Shown here: positions 937 to 13,214 of the stretch, in pieces
Position numbering within the stretch: the stretch's first letter is position 1
Layout: each line of letters begins with the position of its first letter
Source of the DNA: an uncultured Planctomycetia bacterium
GTDB lineage: Bacteria > Omnitrophota > Gorgyraeia > 1-14-0-20-64-10
Direction: 5' to 3'
NCBI GenBank assembly: GCA_964373715.1
Contig: CAYJVR010000002.1
Span: forward strand, 5,714-69,713
Length of the DNA: 64,000 nucleotides
Program-made: the position numbers and the translations under genes
The notes under the pieces: generated by a model
Told to the model about the DNA's origin: nothing
The model's input: the letters and a program-made list of their open reading frames with translations, nothing else
The model's database searches: none

Positions 937-2889
937 ATGAGATCCCGCGTCATTTTTCGCCCCAGATTCTTTATTCCGTTTACTCTCCTTCTCTGCCTGA
1001 TTTTTCCCGCCGCGCCCGCTCTGGCCGATGAAAGAATCCGCCGGTTCCACAGCCAGATCACCGTCCATCCGGATGCCAGCCTGACGGTCCAGGAGACGAT
1101 TGAGGCCCACAGCGAAGGGATTGAAATCCGGCACGGCATCTACCGGGATTTCCCGACCGATTACCGGGACCGGTTCGGCAACCGCTCTATCGTGGATTTT
1201 TCCGTCAAGCAGGTACTGAGGGACGGCCGCCCTGAGAACTTCCATTTTAAGAGACTTTCCAACGGCACGCGCGTTTATATCGGAAACAAAAACGTCCTCC
1301 TGCCGCCCGGGGATTACACCTATGAGCTGACCTACAAGACGAACCGCCAGATCGGTTTTTTCAAAGAGCAGGACGAGCTGTACTGGAACGTGACCGGCAC
1401 CGGATGGGTTTTCCCGATCGAAGAAGCCTCCGCGTCGGTGGTGCTGCCGAAGCAGGTTTCGAGGGATGACCTCGGCACGGCCGGCTACACCGGCCCGCAA
1501 GGGTCAAGGGCGCAGGCGTTCCAGGCCGCCGTGGAAATGAACGGGACAGTCACGTTTGTCACCACGACGCCGTTGCGGCCCGAAGAGGGGCTGACGGTTG
1601 TCGTCTCGTGGCCGAAGGGGATTGTTGACGAACCGACGTTTTCCGACAAGCTTGGCTATCTGATCCACGATAACCGGGCGCTCCTCATCGGACTGCTTGG
1701 TTTGGCGGCGCTTCTTGCGTACTATCTGGTTGTTTGGTCGAAGGTCGGCCGCGATCCGGAGAAAGGCTCGATCATGCCGGTTTACGAGCCTCCGCGGGGG
1801 CTGTCGCCGGCGGAGATCCGCTACATCATGGAGATGGGTTTCGATCATAAAACGTTTGCGGCGGCGATTATTGACATGGCGGTGAAGAGAGTTCTGACCA
1901 TCAGCCTGGTTGACGGCGATTACGTGCTGCACCTCTCCAGGGAAGGTACCGATGGGAAAGCCCTTGCCCCGGAAGAGGAGGAGATAGAGGGGTGGTTTTT
2001 TGCCGGTTCCAGAAGGAGGTTTGCCCTGCAGCAAAGCAACCACGATCTCATCTCAAACGCGCTCCGGGCCGTTAAGAAATCGCTAAAAAAAAGGAATGAA
2101 AGGGTCTATTTTCTGACGAACAGCCGGTACCTCATCCCGGGTCTTGCGATCACCGCCGTCACGGTTGTTTTAAGCGTTCTCGCCCAGTCCCCCCAGGTCA
2201 CGTTCGCCCTGCTTTTTTTCTCTGTGTGGCTGACGATCTGGACGACCGGTGTCGTGATGCTCAGTCTTCAGGCCGCCTCTCTGTGGCGCGAGGTTTTCAG
2301 CGGCCGGGGAGGGGTGGGGAAAACCGGTTCAGCCCTTTTGCACACTCTTTTTGCGGTTCCCTTTTGGGCGGCGGAGATAGTCGTGTTGGTCATGGTCTCG
2401 GTCATGGTCAGTTTTATGCTTATCGTTGTTTTGTTGGTTTTGGTCGGAGTCAGCCTCCTTTTCTATCATCTGCTGAAAGCTCCGACCGGGGCAGGCAGAC
2501 AACTGATGGACAAGATAGAAGGGTTCAAAATGTTTCTGGCTGCGGTGGAAAAGGAGAGGCTCAATTTCTTGAACCCTCCGGGAAAGACGCCGGAGCTGTT
2601 TGAAAAATACCTCCCGTACGCGCTTGCGCTCGGCGTCGAGCAGGCCTGGTCCGAACAGTTTTCCAAAGTGCTCGCCGCGGCGGGGAAAGCGGGCGGAGGC
2701 TACACGCCGGCATGGTATTATGGAGCCGATTGGAACTCCTTCAGCTCGGGCAATTTCGCCTCGTCGCTCGGGAATTCTTTATCCTCCGCGATTGCCTCCT
2801 CCTCCACGGCGCCCGGATCAAGTTCCGGCGGTGGCGGCGGTGGGTCTTCCGGTGGCGGAGGAGGAGGCGGAGGAGGGGGCGGCTGGTAG
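937..2889 (+). CDS. DUF2207-like (YciQ-type) membrane protein with signal peptide, extracytoplasmic N-domain, TM block and C-terminal poly-Gly tail
   Basis: N-terminal signal sequence (LLLCLIFPAAPALA); ~230-aa soluble domain, then several TM helices; C-terminal SSGGGGGGSSGGGGGGGGGGGW tail typical of DUF2207 proteins. Confidence 0.5.
   Translation: MRSRVIFRPRFFIPFTLLLCLIFPAAPALADERIRRFHSQITVHPDASLTVQETIEAHSEGIEIRHGIYRDFPTDYRDRFGNRSIVDFSVKQVLRDGRPENFHFKRLSNGTRVYIGNKNVLLPPGDYTYELTYKTNRQIGFFKEQDELYWNVTGTGWVFPIEEASASVVLPKQVSRDDLGTAGYTGPQGSRAQAFQAAVEMNGTVTFVTTTPLRPEEGLTVVVSWPKGIVDEPTFSDKLGYLIHDNRALLIGLLGLAALLAYYLVVWSKVGRDPEKGSIMPVYEPPRGLSPAEIRYIMEMGFDHKTFAAAIIDMAVKRVLTISLVDGDYVLHLSREGTDGKALAPEEEEIEGWFFAGSRRRFALQQSNHDLISNALRAVKKSLKKRNERVYFLTNSRYLIPGLAITAVTVVLSVLAQSPQVTFALLFFSVWLTIWTTGVVMLSLQAASLWREVFSGRGGVGKTGSALLHTLFAVPFWAAEIVVLVMVSVMVSFMLIVVLLVLVGVSLLFYHLLKAPTGAGRQLMDKIEGFKMFLAAVEKERLNFLNPPGKTPELFEKYLPYALALGVEQAWSEQFSKVLAAAGKAGGGYTPAWYYGADWNSFSSGNFASSLGNSLSSAIASSSTAPGSSSGGGGGGSSGGGGGGGGGGGW
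2821..2886 (+). repeat. GGN trinucleotide-rich low-complexity tract encoding the poly-Gly tail (poly-Pro on the antisense strand)
   Basis: Direct reading: ggcggtggcggcggtgggtcttccggtggcggaggaggaggcggaggagggggcggc. Confidence 0.6.
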
Positions 2890-2928
2890 CGCCGGAAGGT
2901 CATCTTCACAGAAGACAAGGGGGTTTTT

Positions 2929-3720
2929 ATGAAAAGATACGGGATTCTTGATGCGCTCTATATGTCTTTTTATTCAAAACCACTGTACGCGGATGTGGCC
3001 TATTCCTGGAAAGGGGCGGGCTTAAGCTTTCTTCTCGTGCTGACGGTGTTTATCGCTCTTGTCTCTGGGGCACAGATTAACGCGGGGCTGCAGAAATTCG
3101 TTCATCAAGAGGCCCCGGCCATCACCGCCCAGATTCCGGAGATCACGATCTCGAAAGGGAAACTATCCACCCCGGAGCCGCGGCCGTATCTCATCAAAGA
3201 CCCGAAATCAGACCAGTTGGTCGCTGTTATTGACGCGACCCGCACGGATATTCCGGGCGATCTGGAGGGGGCGTATGTTTTTGCGGGAAGTTCCAGGGTG
3301 GTCGTCCGGAAAAGCGAAGCGGAGACACGGATTTACGACCTGGATAAGATTGACCAGTTTGTCCTGAACCAGAAAAGGATGGCTGGCTGGCTGAAGATGC
3401 TTGGAATGTGGGGTACCCCTGCGATTCTCCCGTTTGTCGTCTTTTTCTTTTTTATCGGTAAAGTTGCGCAGGCACTTTTTTTCTCTCTATGGGCGATTTT
3501 CCTCTGCAGGATCCTTCAGGTTTCTTTAGGGTACCGGGCGGTGTTCCGTTTAACCGTGGTCGCAATGACGCCCTCTTCGGTTGCCGGCCTTTTGTTTGAT
3601 GTCGCGCAGCTGAAGCTTGGGGTTTTGGTTTCCGTGCTTGCAGCCGGGTTTATCTATTTAGCGGTCCGTTCGGCGAAGGATGCCCCGGCAGAGGCGCCGT
3701 CTGGTCAAGGGGCTCTTTGA
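2929..3720 (+). CDS. Hypothetical polytopic membrane protein
   Basis: 263-aa ORF with at least four hydrophobic segments; SD-like ggggg upstream; no motif I can name. Confidence 0.4.
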   Translation: MKRYGILDALYMSFYSKPLYADVAYSWKGAGLSFLLVLTVFIALVSGAQINAGLQKFVHQEAPAITAQIPEITISKGKLSTPEPRPYLIKDPKSDQLVAVIDATRTDIPGDLEGAYVFAGSSRVVVRKSEAETRIYDLDKIDQFVLNQKRMAGWLKMLGMWGTPAILPFVVFFFFIGKVAQALFFSLWAIFLCRILQVSLGYRAVFRLTVVAMTPSSVAGLLFDVAQLKLGVLVSVLAAGFIYLAVRSAKDAPAEAPSGQGAL

Positions 3721-3752
3721 GAATCGGGTCGTATTTCTCCTCGTAGAAGCGT

Positions 3753-3758
3753 ATAATG
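3753..3758 (+). promoter_or_regulatory. TATAAT -10-like hexamer 5 nt upstream of the helicase ATG (possible leaderless transcript)
   Basis: gcgTATAATgtctctATG; no Shine-Dalgarno sequence between hexamer and start codon. Confidence 0.2.
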
Positions 3759-3763
3759 TCTCT

Positions 3764-5047
3764 ATGGGTACATTTGAAAACGGAGATGGGCTGGGGACGT
3801 TTGAAGCCCTCGGGCTCCACCCCAATCTGCTCAAGGGGATTCACGATCTCGGATTCCTCCATCCCACTCCGATACAAGCCAAAGCCATCCCGATTATCTT
3901 GGCCGGACGTGACCTGATCGGGTGCGCCCAGACCGGCACCGGCAAGACGGCGGCTTTCGTCCTGCCGATCCTTCACAAACTGCTTCAGCGCAAAGGAGGC
4001 AAGAACTTAAGGTCCCTCATTATCGCGCCGACCCGCGAACTGGCGCTGCAGTCTATGGACCATCTCAAGGACCTTTCCCGGTATGTCCACCTGAAAGGTG
4101 CGGCTATTTTCGGCGGCGTGCCGATGCAGCCGCAAATCTCGGCGCTTGCCCACGGGGTGGATATCGTGGCCGCCACGCCGGGGCGCCTACTGGACCACCT
4201 TTATTCCGGTCGGATCGATTTCGTGGATCTCGAGGTTCTTGTTTTGGATGAAGCCGACCGGATGCTGGACATGGGTTTTCTCCCAGACATCCAAAAAATC
4301 CTCCGGATGCTTCCTCAGAAACGGCAGAGCTTGATGTTTTCCGCGACGATGCCGCCGGAAATCCTCACGCTCGCCCATCAGATTCTCAGCAATCCGATGA
4401 CCGTCCAGATCGGCCACCGGTCCACGCCGGCGTCCGGAATCCGCCACGCGGTTTATCCGGTGCCGCGCCATCTGAAAATGGAACTGTTGGTTGAGCTGTT
4501 AAATCAACAGGGGATGAACTCCGTTCTCGTATTCATCCGGACAAAACACTCGGCGGACAGGGTGGCACATGATTTGCTCCGGCGGGGAATCCGGGTCTCG
4601 GTTCTTCACGGGAACCGCAGCCAAGGGCAGAGGCTTCAAGCGCTGGACCAGTTCCGTCAGGGGCGGGCTCAAGTCATGGTGGCAACCGACATTGCGGCGC
4701 GAGGCATTGACGTGGAAGAGATCAGCCACGTGATCAATTACGACGTCCCTCATACGCCGGACGACTACATCCATCGAGTTGGCCGGACCGGCCGGGCGGA
4801 TGCCGTCGGCGATGCCTTCACGCTGGTAGACCGGGAGGAAGAATCGACGATCCGCCAGATTGAACAGGTGCTGCGCAAGACTTTGCCCCGAGTGACTTTG
4901 CCGAACTTTGATTACAAGAAACCGGGAGAAAGAAGGCAGGTCTCCCGTCAGCCGCGCGGCCACAGCGGGTTTCAGAGAAACCGCGGTGAAAGCGCAGGCG
5001 GCCGGGGTGCCTCTTTTCGCCGCCGGACAGGTGGTCCAAGACGATGA
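3764..5047 (+). CDS. DEAD-box ATP-dependent RNA helicase with RGG-rich C-terminal tail
   Basis: Q motif GFLHPTPIQ, motif I AQTGTGKTAAF, Ia PTRELA, II DEADRM, III SAT, VI HRVGRTGRA; basic RG/RGG-rich C-terminus. The track ORF starts at 3680 but overlaps the upstream gene, so ATG 3764 is preferred. Confidence 0.85.
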   Translation: MGTFENGDGLGTFEALGLHPNLLKGIHDLGFLHPTPIQAKAIPIILAGRDLIGCAQTGTGKTAAFVLPILHKLLQRKGGKNLRSLIIAPTRELALQSMDHLKDLSRYVHLKGAAIFGGVPMQPQISALAHGVDIVAATPGRLLDHLYSGRIDFVDLEVLVLDEADRMLDMGFLPDIQKILRMLPQKRQSLMFSATMPPEILTLAHQILSNPMTVQIGHRSTPASGIRHAVYPVPRHLKMELLVELLNQQGMNSVLVFIRTKHSADRVAHDLLRRGIRVSVLHGNRSQGQRLQALDQFRQGRAQVMVATDIAARGIDVEEISHVINYDVPHTPDDYIHRVGRTGRADAVGDAFTLVDREEESTIRQIEQVLRKTLPRVTLPNFDYKKPGERRQVSRQPRGHSGFQRNRGESAGGRGASFRRRTGGPRR

Positions 5048-5079
5048 TTCGGTTTCCGCGAACTTCCGGAGGTCAGACA

Positions 5080-5319
5080 ATGAAAACCGCTAAGAGAAAA
5101 CGGGTTCTCAAGTTTCGGCCGTTGGAGCAGTGGCAGCTGGACATATTAGCTGAATCCGAATCGGAGAGAAAAAAGAGCTCAAAGAAGTAATTCCCGCCAG
5201 TTGGTTTATCCATAGGGAGCGGTCCTATCCTCGCTGATATGAACCATCCGCTGGCGGGTAAGACGCTGGATTTCAAAATCAAGGTTGTTTCCATCACCTC
5301 GCCTCCTGCCGATAAGTAA
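5080..5319 (+). pseudogene. Remnant of a SlyD-type FKBP peptidyl-prolyl isomerase gene (intact RBS and start, in-frame stop, internal loss, conserved C-terminal strand)
   Basis: GGAGG then 7 nt then ATG; MKTAK... resembles the SlyD N-terminus MK[VI]AK; TAA at 5188-5190; the same frame continues ...DMNHPLAGKTLDFKIKVVSI*, matching the SlyD/FKBP C-terminal signature (E. coli SlyD DGNHMLAGQNLKFNVEVVAI). Total ~79 codons versus ~150 for an intact FKBP domain. Confidence 0.35.
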
Positions 5320-5335
5320 AACCTCCCGCGAGCGC

Positions 5336-5392
5336 CCCCTTACCCTGCCCTCTCCCCTGAGGGGAGAGGATAAAGGTGAGGGGATGGTTGTG
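5336..5392. other. GC-rich imperfect hairpin with a perfect 9-bp core (CCTCTCCCC tga GGGGAGAGG)
   Basis: Direct reading: 5349-5357 is the reverse complement of 5361-5369; the flanks CCCCTTACCCTG / ATAAAGGTGAGGGG are partly complementary. Confidence 0.4.
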
Positions 5393-5431
5393 TTGGAGAA
5401 AAGGAAGATTGCTTCGTTGCTGGGGGCGACG

Positions 5432-5443
5432 AGCGATGCATCG
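5432..5443. promoter_or_regulatory. Perfect 12-bp palindrome GCGATGCATCGC
   Basis: Self-complementary on direct reading; sits in the intergenic region upstream of the outer-membrane-protein gene. Confidence 0.25.
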
Positions 5444-5475
5444 CCGGAGTTCCCCGAGGCGGAGCAAACTAGGCC

Positions 5476-5559
5476 ACTACCAAAATTTGGTAGTTATTGC
5501 GCTTGATGAATTTATAGAGTAAATTGACAAGGTATTTGCTGGATGTGAGAATAACCGCT
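5476..5559 (+). promoter_or_regulatory. Candidate operator (near-palindrome CTACCAAAATTTGGTAG) followed by a sigma70-like promoter (TTGACA-17 nt-GAGAAT) for the 5618 gene
   Basis: 17-bp near-palindrome at 5476-5492; TTGACA at 5525-5530; 17-nt spacer; GAGAAT at 5548-5553; the only AT-rich stretch in the region. Confidence 0.3.
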
Positions 5560-5617
5560 AAAGCAGGGAGGATTTTCCGTCAACACCAGTCGCTTTAGAC
5601 GTGGAATCAGCGTCATC

Positions 5618-6997
5618 TTGGCGTTCTCTCTTCTCTTTTTTGCCGCCCCCGTTTTTTCCCAGAACGAGTACGAAAGCGAAGTTCCTTCCCGCGAAACGGA
5701 AGCCCAGGCGAAAGCGCGGAAGACAGCCGCTCAGGCGCGGCAGCGCGTTCCCTTCGAAGGAAAGCAGGTGACCTACGAGCAGGTTCTCGCCGATCCCGAC
5801 AACATTGGTTTGAATTTCGATTACGCGAAGATACAGATCGTGCGCGGAGACGTTAAGGGGTCTGCGGCGACCCTCGAGAGGCTTCTTTTAGTGAACCCTA
5901 TGCTGGAGAAGGTTCGCCTCCTCTACGGGGTTGTTCTTTTCCGGCTCGACAATTTGGAAGAGGCCGAACGGATGCTTGACAGCGTGCGGGAGATGAAGAT
6001 TACAGACTCCCTGCGCGGGGAGGTGGATAATTATCTGCGCCAAATCCACCTGCGCCGCAAACGGACTCGCTGGACGGCCAGCGTAACCGCCGGGTTTGAA
6101 TTTGATTCGAACCGGAACGCCGCCTCCTCCTCAAAACAACGTTTGGTGGCGGATGCGCCGACAGGGTTGGGATCAAGCTCCCGAAAAAGGGATACGAGCT
6201 TCCTTGGGATCCAGAGCTTTAAGGTGTCCCATGATTTGGGGACTCAAGCGGGGCATCAGTTGTTCGCATCGTTCGACCATTTTCTTCAGGAGCAGACAGT
6301 GGTGAATTCCTTGGATCTGGAGTCCTTTTCGGGGGAGGCCGGCGGCTCCTTTAAGATCGGTCCCGCTGTTTTCACCCCTTCCGCCGAGATAGGCAACATC
6401 CGCCTTTCGAGAGAAACGTTCCTGCGGACGCAGGGAGGCGCCCTGCGCCTGGACCGGCGGGTCAACGAAAAGTGGGTTCTTTTTTGCAACGGGCGGTGGG
6501 TTCGGGAGGATTACACCGGCATTTCGGAGAACTCCGCCGCTCCGCAGCGGCGCGGGCACCGGGCAACTATGGAGCTTGGAACCAACTATGTGCTGAACCC
6601 GGCAATGCGGATTGACGTGAGCGGCAGCCTCATCACCAAATATGCGAAAGCGGCCTACTACGAGTATGACGGCTATGTTGCACAAGCGGGCCACACCTGG
6701 CTGCCAGGCAAGGGCCAGTTTCTGACGAACAGTTTTTCCTACGAGATGGATGCGTATGATGATCCGGATTTTGCCATCAGCGCCCGGACGCGGCGGGATG
6801 AAAAGTACCGGTACCGCCTGACATACGGGGCGCCCGTTTCTTTCTTTATAGGGAAAAAGATACTGCCTAAATTCATTCTGGATGACCTGACGGCAACGGT
6901 GATCTACGAACAATTTAGAGCGATATCCAACGTACAGAATTACACCTACACGAATTCAAAGGCAGTGGTCCTGTTAACAAAAACCGTGGAGTTTTAG
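5618..6997 (+). CDS. Outer-membrane beta-barrel protein with N-terminal TPR-like helical domain (architecture like Slam/DUF560 or FapF-type secretion pores)
   Basis: Signal peptide (LLFFAAPVFS/QN); ~130-aa helical TPR-like region; alternating hydrophobic beta-strand pattern; C-terminus ...KTVEF ends in Phe, the classic OMP beta-signal. Confidence 0.55.
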   Translation: MAFSLLFFAAPVFSQNEYESEVPSRETEAQAKARKTAAQARQRVPFEGKQVTYEQVLADPDNIGLNFDYAKIQIVRGDVKGSAATLERLLLVNPMLEKVRLLYGVVLFRLDNLEEAERMLDSVREMKITDSLRGEVDNYLRQIHLRRKRTRWTASVTAGFEFDSNRNAASSSKQRLVADAPTGLGSSSRKRDTSFLGIQSFKVSHDLGTQAGHQLFASFDHFLQEQTVVNSLDLESFSGEAGGSFKIGPAVFTPSAEIGNIRLSRETFLRTQGGALRLDRRVNEKWVLFCNGRWVREDYTGISENSAAPQRRGHRATMELGTNYVLNPAMRIDVSGSLITKYAKAAYYEYDGYVAQAGHTWLPGKGQFLTNSFSYEMDAYDDPDFAISARTRRDEKYRYRLTYGAPVSFFIGKKILPKFILDDLTATVIYEQFRAISNVQNYTYTNSKAVVLLTKTVEF

Positions 6998-6999
6998 CC

Positions 7000-8574
7000 A
7001 TGCCGAAATGCCGATTGCTGTTGCGCGTGTTTTTCGTGTCAGCGGCGCTTCTGACAGCCTTGCCGGCGTGGGCCCAGCCCGCTCTTCCGGCCGGGATTCC
7101 CTCAGCCGCGCCGGAGGGAGCAGTCCGGGTGGGAGTGGCGGCGGCCGTCAAGGGAACGGTGGAGATTACCCCCCCAGGAGCTGTCGGAAGAATCGCCGCA
7201 AGCGGCCAGCCGATTTTCTTGGGAGACACCGTGACGACCAATGCGCAAGGGGTTCTGCAGATCCTTCTTCTCGATGAGACGACGTTTACGATCGGCCCGA
7301 ACAGCGCCATTGTGATCGATGAATTCGTTTATGATCCGGCGACCTCCGCCGGAAAATTGAGCGCCCGGGTAGTTAAGGGAGCGTTCCGGTTCGTCACTGG
7401 GAAAATCGCAAAAAAGAACCCGAAAGACATGGAAGTAAAACTGCCCTCCGGCACCATCGGGATCCGCGGCACGATTGTGGCGGGGTTTGTTCAGGGAGAG
7501 GCAGCCAAAGTGGTCCTTTTGGGGCCCGGGCCGAGAAACAATACCGGAGACCCGCCCGGCCGTATCGTGGTCAGCAACGTGGCGGGCGGGAAGCTCCATG
7601 AGGTGGCGTTGACCCGGCCTGGATTTGGAACGGAGATCAAAGGGGTTGAAGCGATCCCGTCGCCGCCCGCTCAGGTTCCCGAGGCGGAACTGAACACCCT
7701 CCTCAGCGTGTTTCTGAGCCCTCCCCCTCCACCCGAGCAGACGGAGGGGCCGTCGGGAGCCGGCCAGCAGTCTTCTGGTCAGCAGGGATCGCAGACTCCG
7801 GCAGCAGGGGGGGGCTCAACTACGGGACAGTCATCCAACAGTACGGACGGTTCCGCCGGCACCTCTACCGCTGGATCGGGATCGGAGCCGGGGGGGATGA
7901 GCGACTCGGAAGGGGCGCCGCTCGCCGGCGGGTTTTCGGCGGGAGATTCGACAGCGGGATTTTGGACTGAAGGAGGAACAACGAATCTTGGGAACACAGG
8001 AAGTTTTCAGGATCTGACCGGAGGCCTGGGAGATCTTTCTCAGCAGACTGCTCAGTATACGGCCAATCAATCGGCGCAGATGGGTAATCTGATCGCTACC
8101 CAGGAACAGCTCCGGAGCATTCAAACAGGCGTTTTCCACTATAAAACAAACGGAGCGATCGGCTCATTCGTCCAGACGGTGATGAACGGTTTGCCGGTCC
8201 TTATTTCCGGAACGATCAGCGTACAGGTCAACATTGATTTCGGCGCCCGCGAGCTTGCCGGGACCGTTGGAGGGACAAGCCAATCGAAATACACGCTGGA
8301 TACGCTCAGCTACGGAGGAGACATTTCTGCGGCGGACGTTTCCATCAACCCCCAATCGTTTTCCACCGGAACCGGCCCCGCCGTTTTTCAGGATCCTTCG
8401 GGAGGAGTCCATCAGGTGAGCTTGGAGGTCAGGAACATCGATGGGGCTATCGCCAGCGAAGCGCGGATGGGGGTCACTTACAACACCACCTCCACCGATG
8501 GGGCTGCCAACCGGGATGAAGGCTCTACTCCCACATCGGTGGTAATGCAGCGCGAGGCAGGGGCTGCGCCTTAA
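7000..8574 (+). CDS. Secreted FecR-domain protein with long S/G/T/Q-rich low-complexity linker and C-terminal beta-rich domain
   Basis: SPI-type signal peptide (ALPAWA/QP); FecR-like domain (VKGTVEI...GDTVTTNAQGVLQILLLDETTFTIGPNSAIVIDEFVYDP...FRFVTGKI...GTIGIRGT); ~150-aa S/G/T/Q-rich region; starts 3 nt after the upstream gene. Confidence 0.6.
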   Translation: MPKCRLLLRVFFVSAALLTALPAWAQPALPAGIPSAAPEGAVRVGVAAAVKGTVEITPPGAVGRIAASGQPIFLGDTVTTNAQGVLQILLLDETTFTIGPNSAIVIDEFVYDPATSAGKLSARVVKGAFRFVTGKIAKKNPKDMEVKLPSGTIGIRGTIVAGFVQGEAAKVVLLGPGPRNNTGDPPGRIVVSNVAGGKLHEVALTRPGFGTEIKGVEAIPSPPAQVPEAELNTLLSVFLSPPPPPEQTEGPSGAGQQSSGQQGSQTPAAGGGSTTGQSSNSTDGSAGTSTAGSGSEPGGMSDSEGAPLAGGFSAGDSTAGFWTEGGTTNLGNTGSFQDLTGGLGDLSQQTAQYTANQSAQMGNLIATQEQLRSIQTGVFHYKTNGAIGSFVQTVMNGLPVLISGTISVQVNIDFGARELAGTVGGTSQSKYTLDTLSYGGDISAADVSINPQSFSTGTGPAVFQDPSGGVHQVSLEVRNIDGAIASEARMGVTYNTTSTDGAANRDEGSTPTSVVMQREAGAAP

Positions 8575-8575
8575 A

Positions 8576-10804
8576 CTACTTCGTGGTGGCTACGAATCTG
8601 CCGTCCCATTCTTTGCCGGGCGGGTTTGCCTCGTACAGCTCAATTCGCTCTCTGTAGAGGGCGTACAGCGCTTGAAGCCGCAGAGCGGGAGTTTCCAGTT
8701 TCCGGCATTCCTCGATAAGGCGCCGGGCGTCGTCCCAGCATTGTGTCCGGTAGGCCTCGAGCATCCGGTTGTGTTTGGCTTGCAGTTCCCGGAAAGAGTT
8801 CTCCGCATTTAAGAGGCTGTCTCCTAAAAGCGCGTAAATTCGAACAGGAAGGGTCTTTCCTTTCACGGTAATCAGGTCAATTTCCAGGCAGGCGTAATCG
8901 CCCGCCTGCTCCCGGCTCTGGTCTCCGAGGATAATATCCACGCCGTGCGTCTTGGATTGGCTTTCCAAACGGGAAGCCAGGTTGACGGTGTCTCCAAGCA
9001 CCGAGTAGTCGAATCGCTGATCCGACCCCATGTTCCCGACGCAGCAGGTTCCCGTGTTAATGCCGATTCCGATATGGACCGGCATCCACGATCTGCCGAG
9101 CGACTGCGCCTGGGCCGCCTGTTCTTTGTTCCACGCGATCAAGGTTTTCCGCATTTCAAGGGCCGCGTTACAGGCATGGCGGGCGTGTTCCGGGTCTTCC
9201 AGAGGGGCGTTCCAGAACGCCATGATGCAGTCGCCGATGTATTTATCAATCGTTCCGCTGTGTTTTAAGATAATGTTGGTCATAGGCGTCAGAAAGCGGT
9301 TCATGAATTGCGTGAGGCCCTGAGCGTCGAATTGTTCCGACAGGGTGGTGAATCTGCGGATATCCAGGAAAAGCAGCGTCATCGTTTTCAATTCCCCGCC
9401 CAGACGCAGCTGCTCGGGGTGTTCGGCGAGACGTTTGACGAGAACGGGAGAGAGATAACGGCCGAAAGCCTGGCGCACCTGCCGGCGCTCCATTTCCGTT
9501 TGCCAGGAGATGATGATGGAAGTCGCGAGATAAATGCTGACGGCTGTCAGGGAAGGGAAGACCGGATCCAGGAGCCAATGGTTTTTTGTGAACGCCAGCC
9601 AGGATCCCGCGTATGCGCCGGCGACAGCCAGCACGCCCGCGAGCGCGCACCAGAGAGGGCCTAAGCGGGGCAGCAGGAGGATAAGCCCGATTCCCGTCGC
9701 CACGAGAAAAAGCAATTCAGCCCCCGGCGCCCAGTCCGGGCGGTGGAGAAATTCGCTCGAAAGGGTCTGTTCAATCAATTGGGCGTGGACCTCCGTCCCG
9801 CCGGCCGCCGGATTAAGAGGCGTTGCCCGTATGTCTTTCAGCCCGGCAGCGCTGCTTCCGATAAAAACGATCTTCCCTTCAACAAGGGACCGGTCAAAAT
9901 CCCCGGTGAAAACGGTCCAGGCCGGAACGAAGCGGGCGGCCGCCGGGCCGGTGTCGTAGATCCAGACGCGGCCCTGCTCATCCGTTGGAATCTCGAAGGA
10001 ACCGATCTTGACCGCCACAATGCCGGTTTGGGCCCCTCCGCCCGTTTCGCCGCTTCCCTCGGAGGATTTCACCGTGATCGTCGAAGTTCCCTGCGCCACG
10101 CGCAGCGCTTCGGCCGCCAGGGAGGGGTAAAGAGAGTCGCCGAGGCGCAAAAACAGAGGGACGCGCCGAAGGATCCCGTCCCTTTCCGGCAGGATGTTGA
10201 AATGGCCGTTCCCTTTGGCCGCCTTTTCCAGCTCCGGAAGATTCACGACGGCCCCGCTAAGTCTTGGGACGAATAGAAGAGGATTGTCTCCGCCGTAAGC
10301 GATCCCTGTTTTTAATGCGGGTGTTTGGCCGTTTGGCTCGCTGGATAACACGAATCCGCAGACGACGTTCCCGTTGGAAATCGTTTGAGCGAGAAGCCGG
10401 TCATGGTCGGGCAATTCCCGCGCGGCGGCCTCCAGCGCCGGCGCGGCGGGCCAGAAGGCGATGGCTTGAGAGGGAGAAGTCCGGTCCGGCTCGGAAAAAA
10501 CGATATCGAGAGCAACGACGGCGGCATCCGCCTCATAAAGGCGGCCGATAAGTTTCGCCACCTGGGTGCGCGGCCACGGCCATTGCCCGAGGCGCTTGAG
10601 GCTTTCATCGTTCAGATCCACCACGCATACGGCGGTTTTTTCGAAGGAGCGTGGTTTCAGGTGTTGGAACGTGTCGAAGATCTTAAATCGCGCGTCTTCC
10701 AAAAGGGGAGGATCGGCGATTCGCAGGATTGCCGAGGCGAGGAGGATCAGCGCAGGAAGCAACCACCGCGACCACCGTCCCGATAGCCGGAATGCGCGAG
10801 TCAT
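8576..10804 (-). CDS. CHASE2 sensor-domain class III adenylate/guanylate cyclase
   Basis: N-terminal TM, then CHASE2 signature (VCVVDLNDESLKRLGQWPWPRTQVAKLI...ALDIVFSEPD), TM block, then the cyclase catalytic core (LTLLFLDIRRFTTLSE, GDCIMAFWNAP, IGINTGTCCVGNMGS...LGDTVNLASRLES), then a ~100-aa helical C-terminal extension. Confidence 0.8.
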   Translation of the reverse strand: MTRAFRLSGRWSRWLLPALILLASAILRIADPPLLEDARFKIFDTFQHLKPRSFEKTAVCVVDLNDESLKRLGQWPWPRTQVAKLIGRLYEADAAVVALDIVFSEPDRTSPSQAIAFWPAAPALEAAARELPDHDRLLAQTISNGNVVCGFVLSSEPNGQTPALKTGIAYGGDNPLLFVPRLSGAVVNLPELEKAAKGNGHFNILPERDGILRRVPLFLRLGDSLYPSLAAEALRVAQGTSTITVKSSEGSGETGGGAQTGIVAVKIGSFEIPTDEQGRVWIYDTGPAAARFVPAWTVFTGDFDRSLVEGKIVFIGSSAAGLKDIRATPLNPAAGGTEVHAQLIEQTLSSEFLHRPDWAPGAELLFLVATGIGLILLLPRLGPLWCALAGVLAVAGAYAGSWLAFTKNHWLLDPVFPSLTAVSIYLATSIIISWQTEMERRQVRQAFGRYLSPVLVKRLAEHPEQLRLGGELKTMTLLFLDIRRFTTLSEQFDAQGLTQFMNRFLTPMTNIILKHSGTIDKYIGDCIMAFWNAPLEDPEHARHACNAALEMRKTLIAWNKEQAAQAQSLGRSWMPVHIGIGINTGTCCVGNMGSDQRFDYSVLGDTVNLASRLESQSKTHGVDIILGDQSREQAGDYACLEIDLITVKGKTLPVRIYALLGDSLLNAENSFRELQAKHNRMLEAYRTQCWDDARRLIEECRKLETPALRLQALYALYRERIELYEANPPGKEWDGRFVATTK

Positions 10805-11535
10805 TCCAGATGTGTTTTAAAGGCCAGCTCCAAATCGTCGAGCATGAAGCCCTTTATGGAGAAAGAGACGCCTTCCGTGAAAGCGCCGAGAATCGCCAGC
10901 GCGTTCGGGTTGGCGTCGCCTTTCGTTGCGGACCTTATCCGGTGCGCGAAACCTTCGTTGACCTTTTGGATCTGGCTGTACATCTGTTCGAGCTGGGCCA
11001 GCGTCCAATCCGCTGGCTTGCCGTTTTTTGCTCTCAGATACTGGGCCATCAGGTACATCGACAAAATCCTGAATTGGGTTTCTTTCAAATCCGAGAAGGG
11101 AAGGTGGTGGCGGATGAGAGGCTTCAGTTTGCTTGTCACAGGACAGCCGCTGGCGGCCATCAAAAGCCCGATAAGCCCGCTTAAGGCTTTTTGCAGAGGG
11201 GTCAGCTTTTCATAAACCCGCTCGGGCCCCTCCACGCGGACAAGGACTTTGTCATAAGAGATGGCGGAAGCAAAAAATTCCACGACGTCCACAATACTCA
11301 CGGCGGCCGGGCACCGGGGCGAGTCCTGTTCATTCAGCGGGCAGTTCGCGCATTGGCGGTAAGAGAGCTTAGTCCACTCCGGAAGGGAGGTTTTCTCCGG
11401 GAACAGAAGGCTCAGGGATGCTTTTTCCAGATGGACGGAGAACGCTTTTGTTTCTCCCGAGGGGAGCTTAAAAATATATTTATAGCTGAGAGCTTCCTCC
11501 GGCTTCTTTTTTGGCGCGCTCAACGGTTCGTCCAT
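10801..11535 (-). CDS. Hypothetical soluble protein with paired-Cys motifs (CANCP...RCP...GCP), translationally coupled to the cyclase
   Basis: 244-aa ORF; its stop overlaps the cyclase ATG (ATGA) and its start overlaps the MBL gene by 16 nt; no TM segments; no family I recognise. Confidence 0.5.
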   Translation of the reverse strand: MDEPLSAPKKKPEEALSYKYIFKLPSGETKAFSVHLEKASLSLLFPEKTSLPEWTKLSYRQCANCPLNEQDSPRCPAAVSIVDVVEFFASAISYDKVLVRVEGPERVYEKLTPLQKALSGLIGLLMAASGCPVTSKLKPLIRHHLPFSDLKETQFRILSMYLMAQYLRAKNGKPADWTLAQLEQMYSQIQKVNEGFAHRIRSATKGDANPNALAILGAFTEGVSFSIKGFMLDDLELAFKTHLE

Positions 11536-12362
11536 GTTTTATCTCCCGCCAAGTCCAGAGCCAAATTTCCGGAAGCGGCCATTGTGTTTGGAAAGATTTT
11601 CCGGGTTTTTTCAACGATGTCGTCGATTTCCTCGTCCGATCGGCCGGGGTCGTGCGAGGTCAAAATAAGTTTCTGAACGCCCGCTTCCGCCGCGGTCCGT
11701 GCAGCCATCTCCCAGGTGCTGTGGCCCCAGCCGATCCTCTGTGGAAATTCTTCGGGGGTGTACTGGGCATCGTGAATCAGCGTGCCGGCTCCGCGGCAGA
11801 ATTCGAGGAATTTTCCGTCGAGGCCGGGGTCCCCCGGTTCCCGGTCTGTGGCCAGTACGAGCGTGTGGTCTTGGCCGGACAGTTTATAGCTCAGGCATCC
11901 CTGCGGATGGCGCACCGGGCACCAGGAAACGCGGATGCCGTAGAGGTCCATGCGGCTGCTTTTATCGGGCAAAGGTTTGAACTGGACCGATGCCCCCGAA
12001 TTCAGCAGAGGGACAGGCCAAAAAGGTTTTTCGGCGAATGTCTTGACAGCGGTCACCCAGTCCTTCAGGACGGCTGAGTCGGCCATGAATGTCACCTGGG
12101 CGCCGGGCGTCAGAAAAGGTTTAAACGCGGTGATTCCCAGAATATGGTCCAGATGGACATGCGTCAGGAGAATGGTGATCGGCGGGAGACTGTTTCGGCC
12201 GCATAAGGCATCGCTTAGAGAGGAGATCCCCGTCCCCGCGTCCAGCACAATAAGCCCGGAAGGGGTTTCCAGGCTCACGCAGGGGGTGTGCCCGCCATAC
12301 CGGAGGTACTCTTTACCGGATACCGGGCTGCTACCTCGGGCGCCGTGAATGGTGATCTTCAC
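11520..12362 (-). CDS. MBL-fold metallo-hydrolase, class II cyclic-nucleotide phosphodiesterase-like (HxHLDH)
   Basis: THVHLDHILGI matches the metallo-beta-lactamase H-x-H-x-D-H zinc site and, as I recall it, the class II PDE signature HxHLDH[LIVM]xG[LIVMA]; N-terminal beta-strand MKITIHGARGS...LIVLDAGTG is typical of the MBL fold; first gene of the cyclase operon. Confidence 0.5.
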   Translation of the reverse strand: MKITIHGARGSSPVSGKEYLRYGGHTPCVSLETPSGLIVLDAGTGISSLSDALCGRNSLPPITILLTHVHLDHILGITAFKPFLTPGAQVTFMADSAVLKDWVTAVKTFAEKPFWPVPLLNSGASVQFKPLPDKSSRMDLYGIRVSWCPVRHPQGCLSYKLSGQDHTLVLATDREPGDPGLDGKFLEFCRGAGTLIHDAQYTPEEFPQRIGWGHSTWEMAARTAAEAGVQKLILTSHDPGRSDEEIDDIVEKTRKIFPNTMAASGNLALDLAGDKTWTNR

Positions 12363-12458
12363 GAGAAAAACTATACACCGGAACTATCCTCTCCGTGAAG
12401 TAATTTCAAAAGGATTCGCGGCTGCCCCCTCAAAATTCTGGTTGAGCACTCAATAGTT

Positions 12459-13214
12459 GTGATATACAGTTATATTATGTCGCAGGAGCACGTAAGCCCG
12501 TACAGCGTGATGACGTCCGACCGGACCCGGATCGTTTTCGATTTGTATCGTCACGGGCGGGGGAGCGGGACGGTTTTGGTGATTTGCCCGGGTTTCTTAC
12601 AGAATAAAGGAACAGGAATCTTCCAAAGGCTTTGCCGCGATTTGGCCCGAGATCAGGATGTGATCTGTGTTGATTTCCGCGGGCACGGAAGGTCCGGCGG
12701 ACTTTACACCTTTTCGGCCCGGGAAGGGGAGGATCTGGAGGCTGTTTTGCGGTGGGCGCGGGACCGCTACAAACGGATCCGGCTCATCGGGTTTTCTCTC
12801 GGCGCGGCGGTTTCGATCAACACGGTGCGGCGCTTCTCGGGCCAGGTGGAAAAACTGGTTGCCGTCAGCGCGCCGGCCAGATTTGAGGATATCGAACTGC
12901 GGGTCTGGACCCCCGGGGTTTTTATGGAGGGGGCGCAGGTATGGGACTTCAAAATGGGCTGCCGCCCAAGCTACCCCTGGTTCAAAAAAGAGAAGCCGAT
13001 AGAGAACATTCATCGCTTGGGGTCCCTTCCCGTGCTGTTGATCCACGGATCGGATGACTGGGTCATTTCCCACCGGCACAGCCGCCGCCTTTTTGCCCGG
13101 GCGAAGAAACCCAAACAATTGGAGATCGTTAAACGCGGCGGTCACGCGGAAGAAATTTACCGCCGCCATCCGGAGTGGTTCCTCTCTGTTGTCCGCCGGT
13201 GGTTTTCGGAATGA
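12459..13214 (+). CDS. Alpha/beta-fold hydrolase
   Basis: GFSLG nucleophile elbow; HGSDD; C-terminal GGH. The true start may be an internal Met (MSQEH / MTSDR). Confidence 0.6.
   Translation: MIYSYIMSQEHVSPYSVMTSDRTRIVFDLYRHGRGSGTVLVICPGFLQNKGTGIFQRLCRDLARDQDVICVDFRGHGRSGGLYTFSAREGEDLEAVLRWARDRYKRIRLIGFSLGAAVSINTVRRFSGQVEKLVAVSAPARFEDIELRVWTPGVFMEGAQVWDFKMGCRPSYPWFKKEKPIENIHRLGSLPVLLIHGSDDWVISHRHSRRLFARAKKPKQLEIVKRGGHAEEIYRRHPEWFLSVVRRWFSE

Follow-up and report, generated by a model that had tools for sequence, protein, structure and literature searches.

The locus raises the question of what an MBL-fold hydrolase does at the head of an operon that also encodes a nucleotide cyclase. For the window, by which we mean the whole 64-kb stretch of DNA analyzed, the original prediction had described an MBL-fold open reading frame (ORF) with the motif HVHLDHILGI as the first gene of a cyclase operon, and had proposed that its product degrades cNMPs as a class II phosphodiesterase (PDE). 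In most bacterial phyla, to our knowledge, cAMP-removing enzymes have been little surveyed or not identified at all, and the only characterized examples we know of are CpdA-type proteins of class III and a small number of MBL proteins (Rv1339, YhfI, and CpdA of C. glutamicum). Our best reading, drawn from sequence, is that the cyclase-linked MBL family is a new, widespread signaling subfamily whose window member would be a cytoplasmic cAMP phosphodiesterase paired with the cyclase.

The MBL gene and its operon

The ORF was found where predicted, with its motif at residues 68 to 77 (Table 1). It was also rightly called the first gene of the cyclase operon, since the MBL gene overlaps the ORF of a DUF6901 protein by 16 nt and the latter overlaps the longest reading of the CHASE2 class III cyclase by 4 nt. 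The promoter match upstream of the MBL gene is weak evidence: the consensus scan returned 3 sites in the region versus 1.4 expected from shuffles.

Table 1. Features of the MBL-cyclase locus, in window coordinates
Feature	Position	Strand	Basis
Sigma-70-like promoter match (TTCACG-18 nt-TATAGT), ending 8 nt upstream of the MBL GTG	12370..12399	minus	Consensus scan; weak evidence
MBL-fold hydrolase gene, 280 aa, GTG start	11520..12362	minus	ORF and translation
Codons of HVHLDHILGI (MBL residues 68-77, MBL motif II, preceded by Thr67)	12132..12161	minus	Direct read of sequence
DUF6901 protein, 244 aa; C62, C65, C75, C131, and H144 invariant	10801..11535	minus	16-nt overlap with MBL gene
CHASE2 sensor and class III nucleotide cyclase, 742 aa from first ATG (gene-caller start 10762)	8576..10804	minus	CHASE2 6.1e-55, Guanylate_cyc 2.5e-23
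Secreted FecR-domain protein, convergent with cyclase	7000..8574	plus	FecR 4.1e-10
Protein with N-terminal TPR and C-terminal SlipAM outer-membrane barrel-like region, directly upstream of FecR gene	5618..6997	plus	TPR_19 5.2e-07

The MBL protein matched the Pfam families Lactamase_B_2 (PF12706; 7.9e-16, 58.7 bits) and Lactamase_B (7.4e-07). It lacks a signal peptide, its N terminus being the first beta-strand of the fold, and its AF2 model has a pLDDT of 92.9. In a 32-sequence family alignment that included relatives down to 43% identity, the metal ligands H68, H70, D72, H73, H152, D173, and H237 were all invariant, as was H214 in the GWGHS loop. Seven invariant ligands together with an additional catalytic-loop His form the pattern of an active hydrolase. 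Judged by sequence, the protein is an intact hydrolase that depends on metal. It belongs to a large uncharacterized family, which comprises 2,342 clusters at 50% identity (E ≤ 1e-30).

The best solved relative of the window cyclase is CyaB of P. aeruginosa (6.9e-38). The window enzyme carries Lys in GTIDKYIGD, where the next-ranked chains have Lys (6fht) and Glu (2w01), and Ser in FDYSVLGD, where CyaB has Thr. From this Lys/Ser pair, which is typical of such enzymes, it is predicted to be an adenylate cyclase; Acidobacteria-type cyclases near other family members carry the Lys/Thr pair of the adenylate cyclase CyaB. The FecR gene keeps its position and orientation in four related loci (L084, L086, L089, and L094), and its product probably takes part in signal perception by the CHASE2 protein. 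The adjacent TPR/SlipAM-like gene, whose SlipAM match reached 21.7 bits (cut-off, 22), is kept in three of these (L084, L086, and L094). A small home-made HMM built from five neighbor domains found no cNMP-binding gene in the window.

For DUF6901, we found neither a PDB fold match nor, in a literature search, any paper. Its distant homologues P0138, P0141, and P0143 do not lie beside MBL or cyclase genes, so the pairing is not obligatory throughout the DUF6901 family. In the window lineage, DUF6901 presumably partners or regulates the MBL enzyme, and the linkage to MBL and cyclase genes would give DUF6901 its first functional context.

Genomic neighborhoods and domain fusions of the family

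A CHASE2 cyclase adjoins the MBL gene in 17 of 80 genome loci. It lies upstream on the same strand in loci of the Acidobacteria/Aminicenantes type and downstream in Omnitrophota; in Victivallis it is on the opposite strand. The upstream-cyclase loci run M48 peptidase, CHASE2 cyclase, MBL, and an MscS channel with a cNMP_binding domain. All four close relatives examined (57 to 61% identity) cluster MBL, DUF6901, and CHASE2 cyclase genes. Three of them keep the window gene order, while in L088 the DUF6901 gene follows the cyclase on the opposite strand, and three of the four have extra cNMP_binding genes. An independent metagenome scan (flanks of at least 2.5 kb) detected a cyclase, CHASE2, or cNMP-binding gene nearby in 21 of 49 loci. 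Among the neighbor clusters of the family, ranked by frequency, cyclases were the first and cNMP-binding proteins the third. A neighbor-joining tree placed the window protein within the cyclase-linked clade.

Fusions point to the same associations. One protein joins MBL, REC, and class III cyclase domains (P0250). Another (P0156/P0302) joins MBL to DUF6901, and behind it lie the CHASE2 cyclase, FecR, and TPR genes known from the window. Other family members carry the MBL domain N-terminal to PilZ, STAS, or histidine-kinase domains, and the MBL-PilZ fusion in L026 is genuine. N-terminal extensions of long "MBL" ORFs in high-GC actinobacterial loci contained no Pfam-detectable PAS domain and were rejected as real domains, being taken for artifacts of the first-start ORF rule. 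Two long ORFs, L039 and L066, gave an MFS match and no match, respectively.

In about three quarters of the genome loci, the family member does not adjoin a cyclase, and one large MBL clade is paired instead with a small PAS protein. Together with the PilZ, STAS, and kinase fusions, these loci suggest that the substrate may differ across the family. For the candidate MBL phosphodiesterase of the window, the conserved neighborhood and the domain fusions give good support to the originally predicted role in cNMP degradation.

Substrate and family assignment

Because the family stands repeatedly beside, or fused to, cAMP-making enzymes and cAMP receptors, the MBL protein most likely ends that signal. 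We consider it probable that it is a cytoplasmic binuclear-metal phosphodiesterase that hydrolyzes the 3',5'-cyclic nucleotide of the co-transcribed CHASE2 cyclase, most probably cAMP; the cyclase and cNMP-receptor neighborhood and the fusions support such an activity indirectly.

That the enzyme is instead a phosphodiesterase for another nucleotide (a 2',3'-cNMP, c-di-GMP/pGpG, or cyclic pyrimidines) seems unlikely, although several observations lean that way. PilZ, fused to other family members, is a c-di-GMP receptor domain; some members bear the JGI name "phosphoribosyl 1,2-cyclic phosphodiesterase"; and MBL phosphodiesterases are often promiscuous (PMC9117128). Many homologues also have weak precomputed matches to the Apyc1 family (PF23023). 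However, the adjoining class III cyclase has the adenylate-type Lys, and the conserved neighbors are cNMP_binding proteins rather than GGDEF/EAL proteins. Assignment of the window protein to PhnP was rejected, with TIGR03307 scoring 19.1 bits against 272 and no phn operon present: its neighbors are DUF6901, the cyclase, and an alpha/beta hydrolase. Assignment to Apyc1 was likewise rejected, as a local scan with PF23023 gave no match at E ≤ 1, PADLOC gave none, and the contig is chromosomal (315 kb). PADLOC defense models matched none of the MBL, DUF6901, FecR, and TPR proteins and revealed no Pycsar effector; the cyclase matches PycC models only because it has the class III cyclase fold in common with them, and it was not retained as PycC.

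The strongest sequence scores of the window protein are to RNase Z, and one could suppose that it trims RNA 3' ends as an RNase Z/RNase BN-like nuclease and adjoins the cyclase incidentally. We regard this as improbable. The scores cover only the C-terminal third (best stretch, residues 184 to 271) and lie far under the cut-offs: TIGR02651 gave 63.4 bits against 292.95 and NF000801 gave 68.4 against 252, and on all RNase Z NCBIfam models (cut-offs of 252 to 563 bits) the protein falls short by about 200 bits or more. Compared with RNase Z/ZiPD of the ELAC family (PDB 2CBN and 1Y44), it also has only about 11 counterparts to the roughly 56 residues at ZiPD 156 to 211, a gap that we take to be the site of the tRNA-binding flexible arm (exosite); this arm region is missing from the window protein. 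Finally, its genomic context is signaling rather than tRNA processing, and linkage to cyclases, cNMP receptors, and signaling fusions recurs across phyla, which is not expected of a housekeeping tRNA enzyme.

Another reading is that the MBL protein controls the cyclase, chiefly in the role of sensor or scaffold and perhaps through a bound metal or ligand, instead of degrading the signal. Its place N-terminal to histidine kinase, STAS, and PilZ domains is that of a sensor domain, and its partner DUF6901 has a Cys4 site. Nevertheless, we think this very improbable, given the invariance of the metal ligands and the catalytic-loop His described above and an MBL-REC-cyclase fusion that recalls synthesis/degradation pairs such as GGDEF-EAL.

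The motif that suggested class II membership is shared more widely than it first appears. With PROSITE pattern PS00607 taken as H-x-H-L-D-H-[LIVM]-x-[GS]-[LIVMA]-[LIVM](2)-x-S-[AP], the window protein fits positions 1 to 10 and fails at positions 11 to 15 (T-A-F-K-P), and the full pattern in this form matched 0 of 265 family members. The RNase Z motifs HLHGDHLFGL (E. coli) and HMHGDHVYGL (B. subtilis) both fit H-x-H-x-D-H-[LIVM]-x-[GS]-[LIVMA], so the class II resemblance of HVHLDHILGI depends only on Leu at position 4. Of 120 close relatives, 108 have this Leu, but among 145 representatives of the wider family at 50% identity Trp is commonest (76, versus 39 with Leu), and "HxHLDH" by itself is not diagnostic of class II PDE membership. 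Pfam PF02112 gave no match to the window protein at E ≤ 1; on relatives it scored 12 to 16 bits, against a gathering threshold of 23.7, over the HxHxDH stretch only (profile positions 86 to 142). Yeast PDE1 ranks below RNase Z, BA1088/YhfI, PhnP-type, and other MBL structures as a match, and the closest structural relative is not a class II PDE such as this one. On these grounds, we give almost no credence to the reading of the window protein as a true classical class II 3',5'-cyclic-nucleotide phosphodiesterase (PF02112; CpdP, yeast Pde1, and Dictyostelium PdsA).

The class II assignment of the original prediction (PF02112/PS00607, CpdP type) was thus not borne out, there being no PDEase_II match; the protein could not be placed confidently with RNase Z or PhnP either, because every NCBIfam score lies far under its cut-off, and no YycJ model was among the NCBIfam matches listed at E ≤ 1. 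The equivalogs GloB, lactonases, RNase Z, PhnP, and Rv1339-type PDE were all rejected as falling far short of their cut-offs.

A possible envelope-to-cAMP module and its known counterparts

If the window protein is a cAMP phosphodiesterase, the locus could work as follows. The FecR-domain and TPR/barrel proteins would pass an envelope signal to the CHASE2 domain, and the cyclase would make a 3',5'-cyclic nucleotide, most probably cAMP. The MBL phosphodiesterase would then cleave cAMP to 5'-AMP, by which the signal would be ended or shaped. DUF6901, in which four Cys and one His are invariant, may bind and regulate the MBL protein, perhaps via a metal or redox center.

We put forward more tentatively, as a possibility we do not favor outright, that the wide MBL family is an unrecognized signaling domain, the cAMP counterpart of EAL/HD-GYP, and that with DUF6901, cyclase, FecR, and barrel proteins it makes up an envelope-to-cAMP module. 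If so, it would supply cAMP degradation in Omnitrophota, Acidobacteriota, Aminicenantes, Lentisphaerota, and others that lack an assigned enzyme, and would tie the MBL domain by gene pairing or fusion to the sensors PAS, STAS, PilZ, REC, and histidine kinase. In the window lineage, MBL and DUF6901 would form a two-subunit enzyme whose Cys4(His) site could make cAMP breakdown redox or metal responsive, and the CHASE2 cyclase, FecR protein, and Slam-like outer-membrane protein would be a self-contained envelope-to-cAMP module. Complete cAMP circuits of uncultured lineages could be recognized in genomes by an MBL gene of this family that stands, as it repeatedly does, between genes for an adenylate cyclase and for a cAMP-gated channel, or that is fused to a cyclase, as is sometimes the case.

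A partial precedent for the envelope side comes from S. meliloti, where passages of one study describe the CHASE2 receptor adenylate cyclases CyaD1, CyaD2, and CyaK as requiring NsrA, a beta-barrel protein of the outer membrane, for activation (PMC13001267). Those class III enzymes and the window cyclase share the CHASE2 domain, and the barrel dependence has its parallel in the TPR/SlipAM-like barrel and FecR proteins conserved beside the window cyclase; the S. meliloti passages mention neither an MBL enzyme nor FecR. The sequence annotation of the window's envelope partners is unrelated to that in S. meliloti, and it is only their conserved position that suggests a role.

With the classical class II PDEs (V. 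fischeri CpdP, yeast Pde1 [PDB 4OJV], and Dictyostelium PdsA), the window protein shares the MBL fold, an HxHLDH core in which position 4 is Leu, and a cNMP-degrading role, in its case a proposed one. It is, however, about 80 to 90 residues shorter than yeast PDE1 (369 aa), and it is predicted to be cytoplasmic, whereas CpdP of V. fischeri is periplasmic. Apyc1, a cNMP phosphodiesterase that phages direct against Pycsar, and its bacterial Apyc1-like relatives share with it the MBL fold and a similar size (Hobbs et al. 2022, PMC9117128).

The best fold matches of the MBL model were YhfI, RNase Z, and BA1088, with YhfI top in Foldseek, and the top sequence-profile matches were RNase Z, YhfI, and BA1088. 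BA1088, which we take to be a YhfI-type protein, aligned over the full length at 54 bits. Identity to characterized cNMP PDEs was nevertheless only 16 to 23%, and NF041851, from its name presumably the Rv1339-type model, matched partially at 32 bits against an equivalog cut-off of 400, so that orthology to Rv1339 was rejected. The atypical class II PDEs (B. subtilis YhfI [PDB 6KNS], M. tuberculosis Rv1339, and C. glutamicum CpdA; Thomson et al. 2022, PMC9293780) are, like the window protein, single-domain cytoplasmic MBL-fold proteins of about 250 to 280 aa that match PF12706 and are akin to RNase Z; their cAMP/cGMP hydrolysis is the activity proposed here. Their defining signature, [T/S]HxHxDH (PMC9293780), reads T67-H-V-H-L-D-H73 in the window protein, and 264 of 265 family members have Thr or Ser directly before the first His. 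Literature searches for CHASE2 with MBL phosphodiesterases, or for "atypical class II" beyond Thomson et al., returned nothing on this MBL family, and none was found to link known atypical class II enzymes to CHASE2 operons, DUF6901, or such fusions. The window protein shares only 16 to 19% identity with those enzymes, and its family differs from them in the GWGHS and HDAQ loops that are invariant within it, in an N-terminal GxRGSxP...YGG motif, and in having CHASE2-cyclase operons, a DUF6901 partner, and fusions to REC-cyclase, PilZ, STAS, and kinase domains. By these predicted features, it is a separate uncharacterized subfamily within the RNase Z-derived group that includes YhfI, Rv1339, CpdA of C. 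glutamicum, and Apyc1.

The MBL gene and its operon

The original prediction had placed an MBL-fold protein with an HVHLDHILGI motif at the head of a cyclase operon. Both points were borne out: the ORF is present as claimed, and the MBL, DUF6901 and CHASE2 cyclase genes follow one another on one strand. The protein matched the Pfam domain Lactamase_B_2 (7.9e-16), as well as Lactamase_B. In an alignment of 32 sequences, with relatives at 43-66% identity, all MBL metal ligands (H68, H70, D72, H73, H152, D173 and H237) were invariant, as was H214 of the GWGHS loop. The window corresponds to contig CAMTXI010000002.1 (assembly GCA_947085675.1), and the nearest named relatives come from Omnitrophota MAGs.

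A sigma-70-like TTCACG-18 nt-TATAGT element, a consensus match only, ends 8 nt ahead of the MBL GTG (12370..12399, minus strand); 3 such matches were found versus 1.4 expected. No Shine-Dalgarno sequence was evident ahead of this start, and the operon transcript may be leaderless. Divergent from the MBL gene is an alpha/beta-hydrolase gene (251 aa, 12459..13214, plus strand), with a gene for a MarR-family regulator after it. In locus L094, the fused MBL-DUF6901 gene likewise has an alpha/beta-hydrolase upstream.

Coordinates of features in the window and in related loci
Feature	Position	Strand	Basis or remark
TPR protein, near-threshold SlipAM-like outer-membrane barrel	5618..6997	+	
Secreted FecR-domain protein, Gly/Ser/Thr-rich linker	7000..8574	+	
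CHASE2 + class III cyclase	8576..10804	-	next ORF after DUF6901, same strand
DUF6901 protein	10801..11535	-	Pfam 3.7e-71; 16-nt overlap with MBL gene
MBL-fold protein, 280 aa, GTG start	11520..12362	-	ORF and translation
HVHLDHILGI, MBL residues 68-77	12132..12161	-	read in sequence
Acidobacteria/Aminicenantes-type operon	about 2400-8500 in each locus		L016, L020, L021, L027, L030, L031, L032, L035
PAS protein gene of the PAS-linked loci	just upstream of position 6001		L047, L050, L054, L058, L060, L063, L074, L076, L078 and others

Gene neighbourhoods and domain fusions

Genomic context is the main evidence for the putative function of the MBL protein. Scanning one genome per species, we recovered relatives sharing 31-52% identity at 80 loci, which came from Verrucomicrobiota, Lentisphaerota, Omnitrophota, Acidobacteriota, Aminicenantes, Actinomycetota, Bacteroidota and Alphaproteobacteria. 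A CHASE2 cyclase adjoins the MBL gene in 17 of these: 15 have it immediately upstream in the same orientation, one Omnitrophota contig has it downstream, and in Victivallis it is encoded on the other strand. When all neighbours within 3.5 kb of the MBL gene were clustered, the cyclase ranked first (21 loci), followed by a small PAS protein (20 loci) and cNMP-binding proteins (15 loci). The window protein fell in the cyclase-linked half of an NJ tree, with PAS-linked loci forming the other half. In this second large clade (Bacteroidota, Actinomycetota and others), the gene for a stand-alone PAS protein (131-145 aa) comes just before the MBL gene in 20 loci, running into its start, and no cyclase was found nearby.

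The Acidobacteria/Aminicenantes-type order runs from an SH3 protein through an M48 peptidase, the CHASE2 cyclase and the MBL protein to an MscS-type channel (~540 aa) with a C-terminal cNMP_binding domain. Synthase, candidate degrading enzyme and receptor thus share one conserved operon, which has the appearance of a full cAMP circuit whose last element is a cAMP-gated channel of the mechanosensitive type. MBL, DUF6901 and CHASE2 cyclase genes were clustered in each of the four close relatives inspected (57-61% identity). Three share the window's order of these genes and have FecR-domain genes convergent with them, with TPR genes annotated in two; in the other, L088, DUF6901 follows the cyclase on the opposite strand. 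Extra cNMP_binding genes occur in three of the four, among them a gene for an MMPL-type transporter that ends in a cNMP_binding domain. Such MMPL/RND-type transporters (~910 aa, C-terminal cNMP_binding; L084, 1..2588; L088, 1880..4624) adjoin the MBL-cyclase module in Omnitrophota-type contigs, which suggests cAMP-controlled export. In an independent metagenome scan, 49 loci had flanks of 2.5 kb or more, and in 21 of these a gene for a cyclase, CHASE2 or cNMP-binding protein lay close by; MBL-DUF6901 was found in two more loci, one continuing into CHASE2.

Searching 1.84 billion representatives with a profile gave 2,342 clusters at E<=1e-30, and fusions were taken from the best 150. One protein (P0250; locus L095, 384..2384) joins MBL, REC and class III cyclase domains, its MBL domain carrying HFHWDH and sharing 38% identity with the window protein. 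Others combine MBL with histidine kinase (P0259 and P0262, one with GAF), STAS (five: P0187, P0191, P0216, P0241, P0295) or PilZ (four: P0183, P0195, P0176, P0208, with one more at genome locus L026, 5959-7176). DUF6901 is fused to MBL in P0156 and P0302. On the 36-kb contig of P0302, the genes after the fused one encode the CHASE2 cyclase, FecR and TPR proteins seen in the window. The order of genes in the window is thus repeated by a fusion, an argument for joint action of the MBL protein and DUF6901. The new subfamily has a partner protein that is still unstudied and is fused to many kinds of signalling domain; the MBL family behaves like a modular signalling domain.

Predicted nucleotide and function

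Among solved structures, the best match to the cyclase domain is Pseudomonas aeruginosa adenylate cyclase CyaB (6.9e-38). The window cyclase has Lys in GTIDKYIGD, where chain 2w01 has Glu, and Ser at the Thr position of CyaB; Acidobacteria-type cyclases have Lys and Thr. We take 2w01 to be the guanylate cyclase Cya2, though its PDB entry is labelled 'adenylate cyclase'. Since Lys is an established marker of adenylate specificity in class III cyclases, and Glu of guanylate specificity, the predicted product is cAMP. No signal peptide was found in the MBL protein, which would therefore occupy the same cytoplasm as the cyclase catalytic domain.

The best-supported explanation, and a probable one, is that the MBL protein degrades the CHASE2 cyclase's nucleotide, with cAMP the likely substrate. 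A phosphodiesterase for another nucleotide, a sensor and an RNA nuclease are less probable alternatives, each fitting the genomic context less well. The TPR/SlipAM-like and FecR genes are convergent with the cyclase, an arrangement conserved in L084, L086, L089 and L094, and their products may provide envelope input to CHASE2. In that role they would be comparable to NsrA of Sinorhizobium meliloti.

Motif and family placement

By itself, the motif is weak evidence of class II membership, because RNase Z sequences (HLHGDHLFGL in Escherichia coli, HMHGDHVYGL in Bacillus subtilis) fit the ten-residue block everywhere but Leu at position 4, and this Leu is variable: it occurs in 108 of 120 close relatives, while the wider family (145 representatives at 50% identity) has Trp in 76 and Leu in 39. 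After this block, the PROSITE class II pattern presumably continues [LIVM](2)-x-S-[AP], where the MBL protein reads T-A-F-K-P; the full pattern, so taken, matched 0 of 265 family members. A Pfam scan found no PF02112 match in the protein at E<=1, and a few relatives reached 12-16 bits in the motif region (cut-off, 23.7). Searched against PDB sequences, the family profile matched RNase Z (64 bits), BA1088 (54 bits, full length), YhfI (44 bits), ELAC1 (43 bits), PhnP (22 bits), yeast PDE1 (20 bits) and Apyc1 (17 bits). On these grounds the classical class II family of the original prediction was rejected; what gene context and fusions favour is its other part, a role in degrading the cyclase's nucleotide.

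Against NCBIfam, the protein scored 63-68 bits with RNase Z models, whose cut-offs are 252-293, aligning best in its C-terminal part. It scored 32 bits with equivalog NF041851, 'cyclic nucleotide-degrading phosphodiesterase' (cut-off, 400), and 19 bits with PhnP (cut-off, 272). We infer a new, uncharacterised subfamily of RNase Z-derived MBL phosphodiesterases. Thomson et al. (PMC9293780) describe atypical class-II phosphodiesterases (Rv1339, YhfI and Corynebacterium glutamicum CpdA) by [T/S]HxHxDH, PF12706 and descent from RNase Z, and YhfI prefers cAMP/cGMP (Hobbs et al., PMC9117128). The MBL protein shares their motif and domain but scores below every curated threshold and belongs to a separate subfamily.
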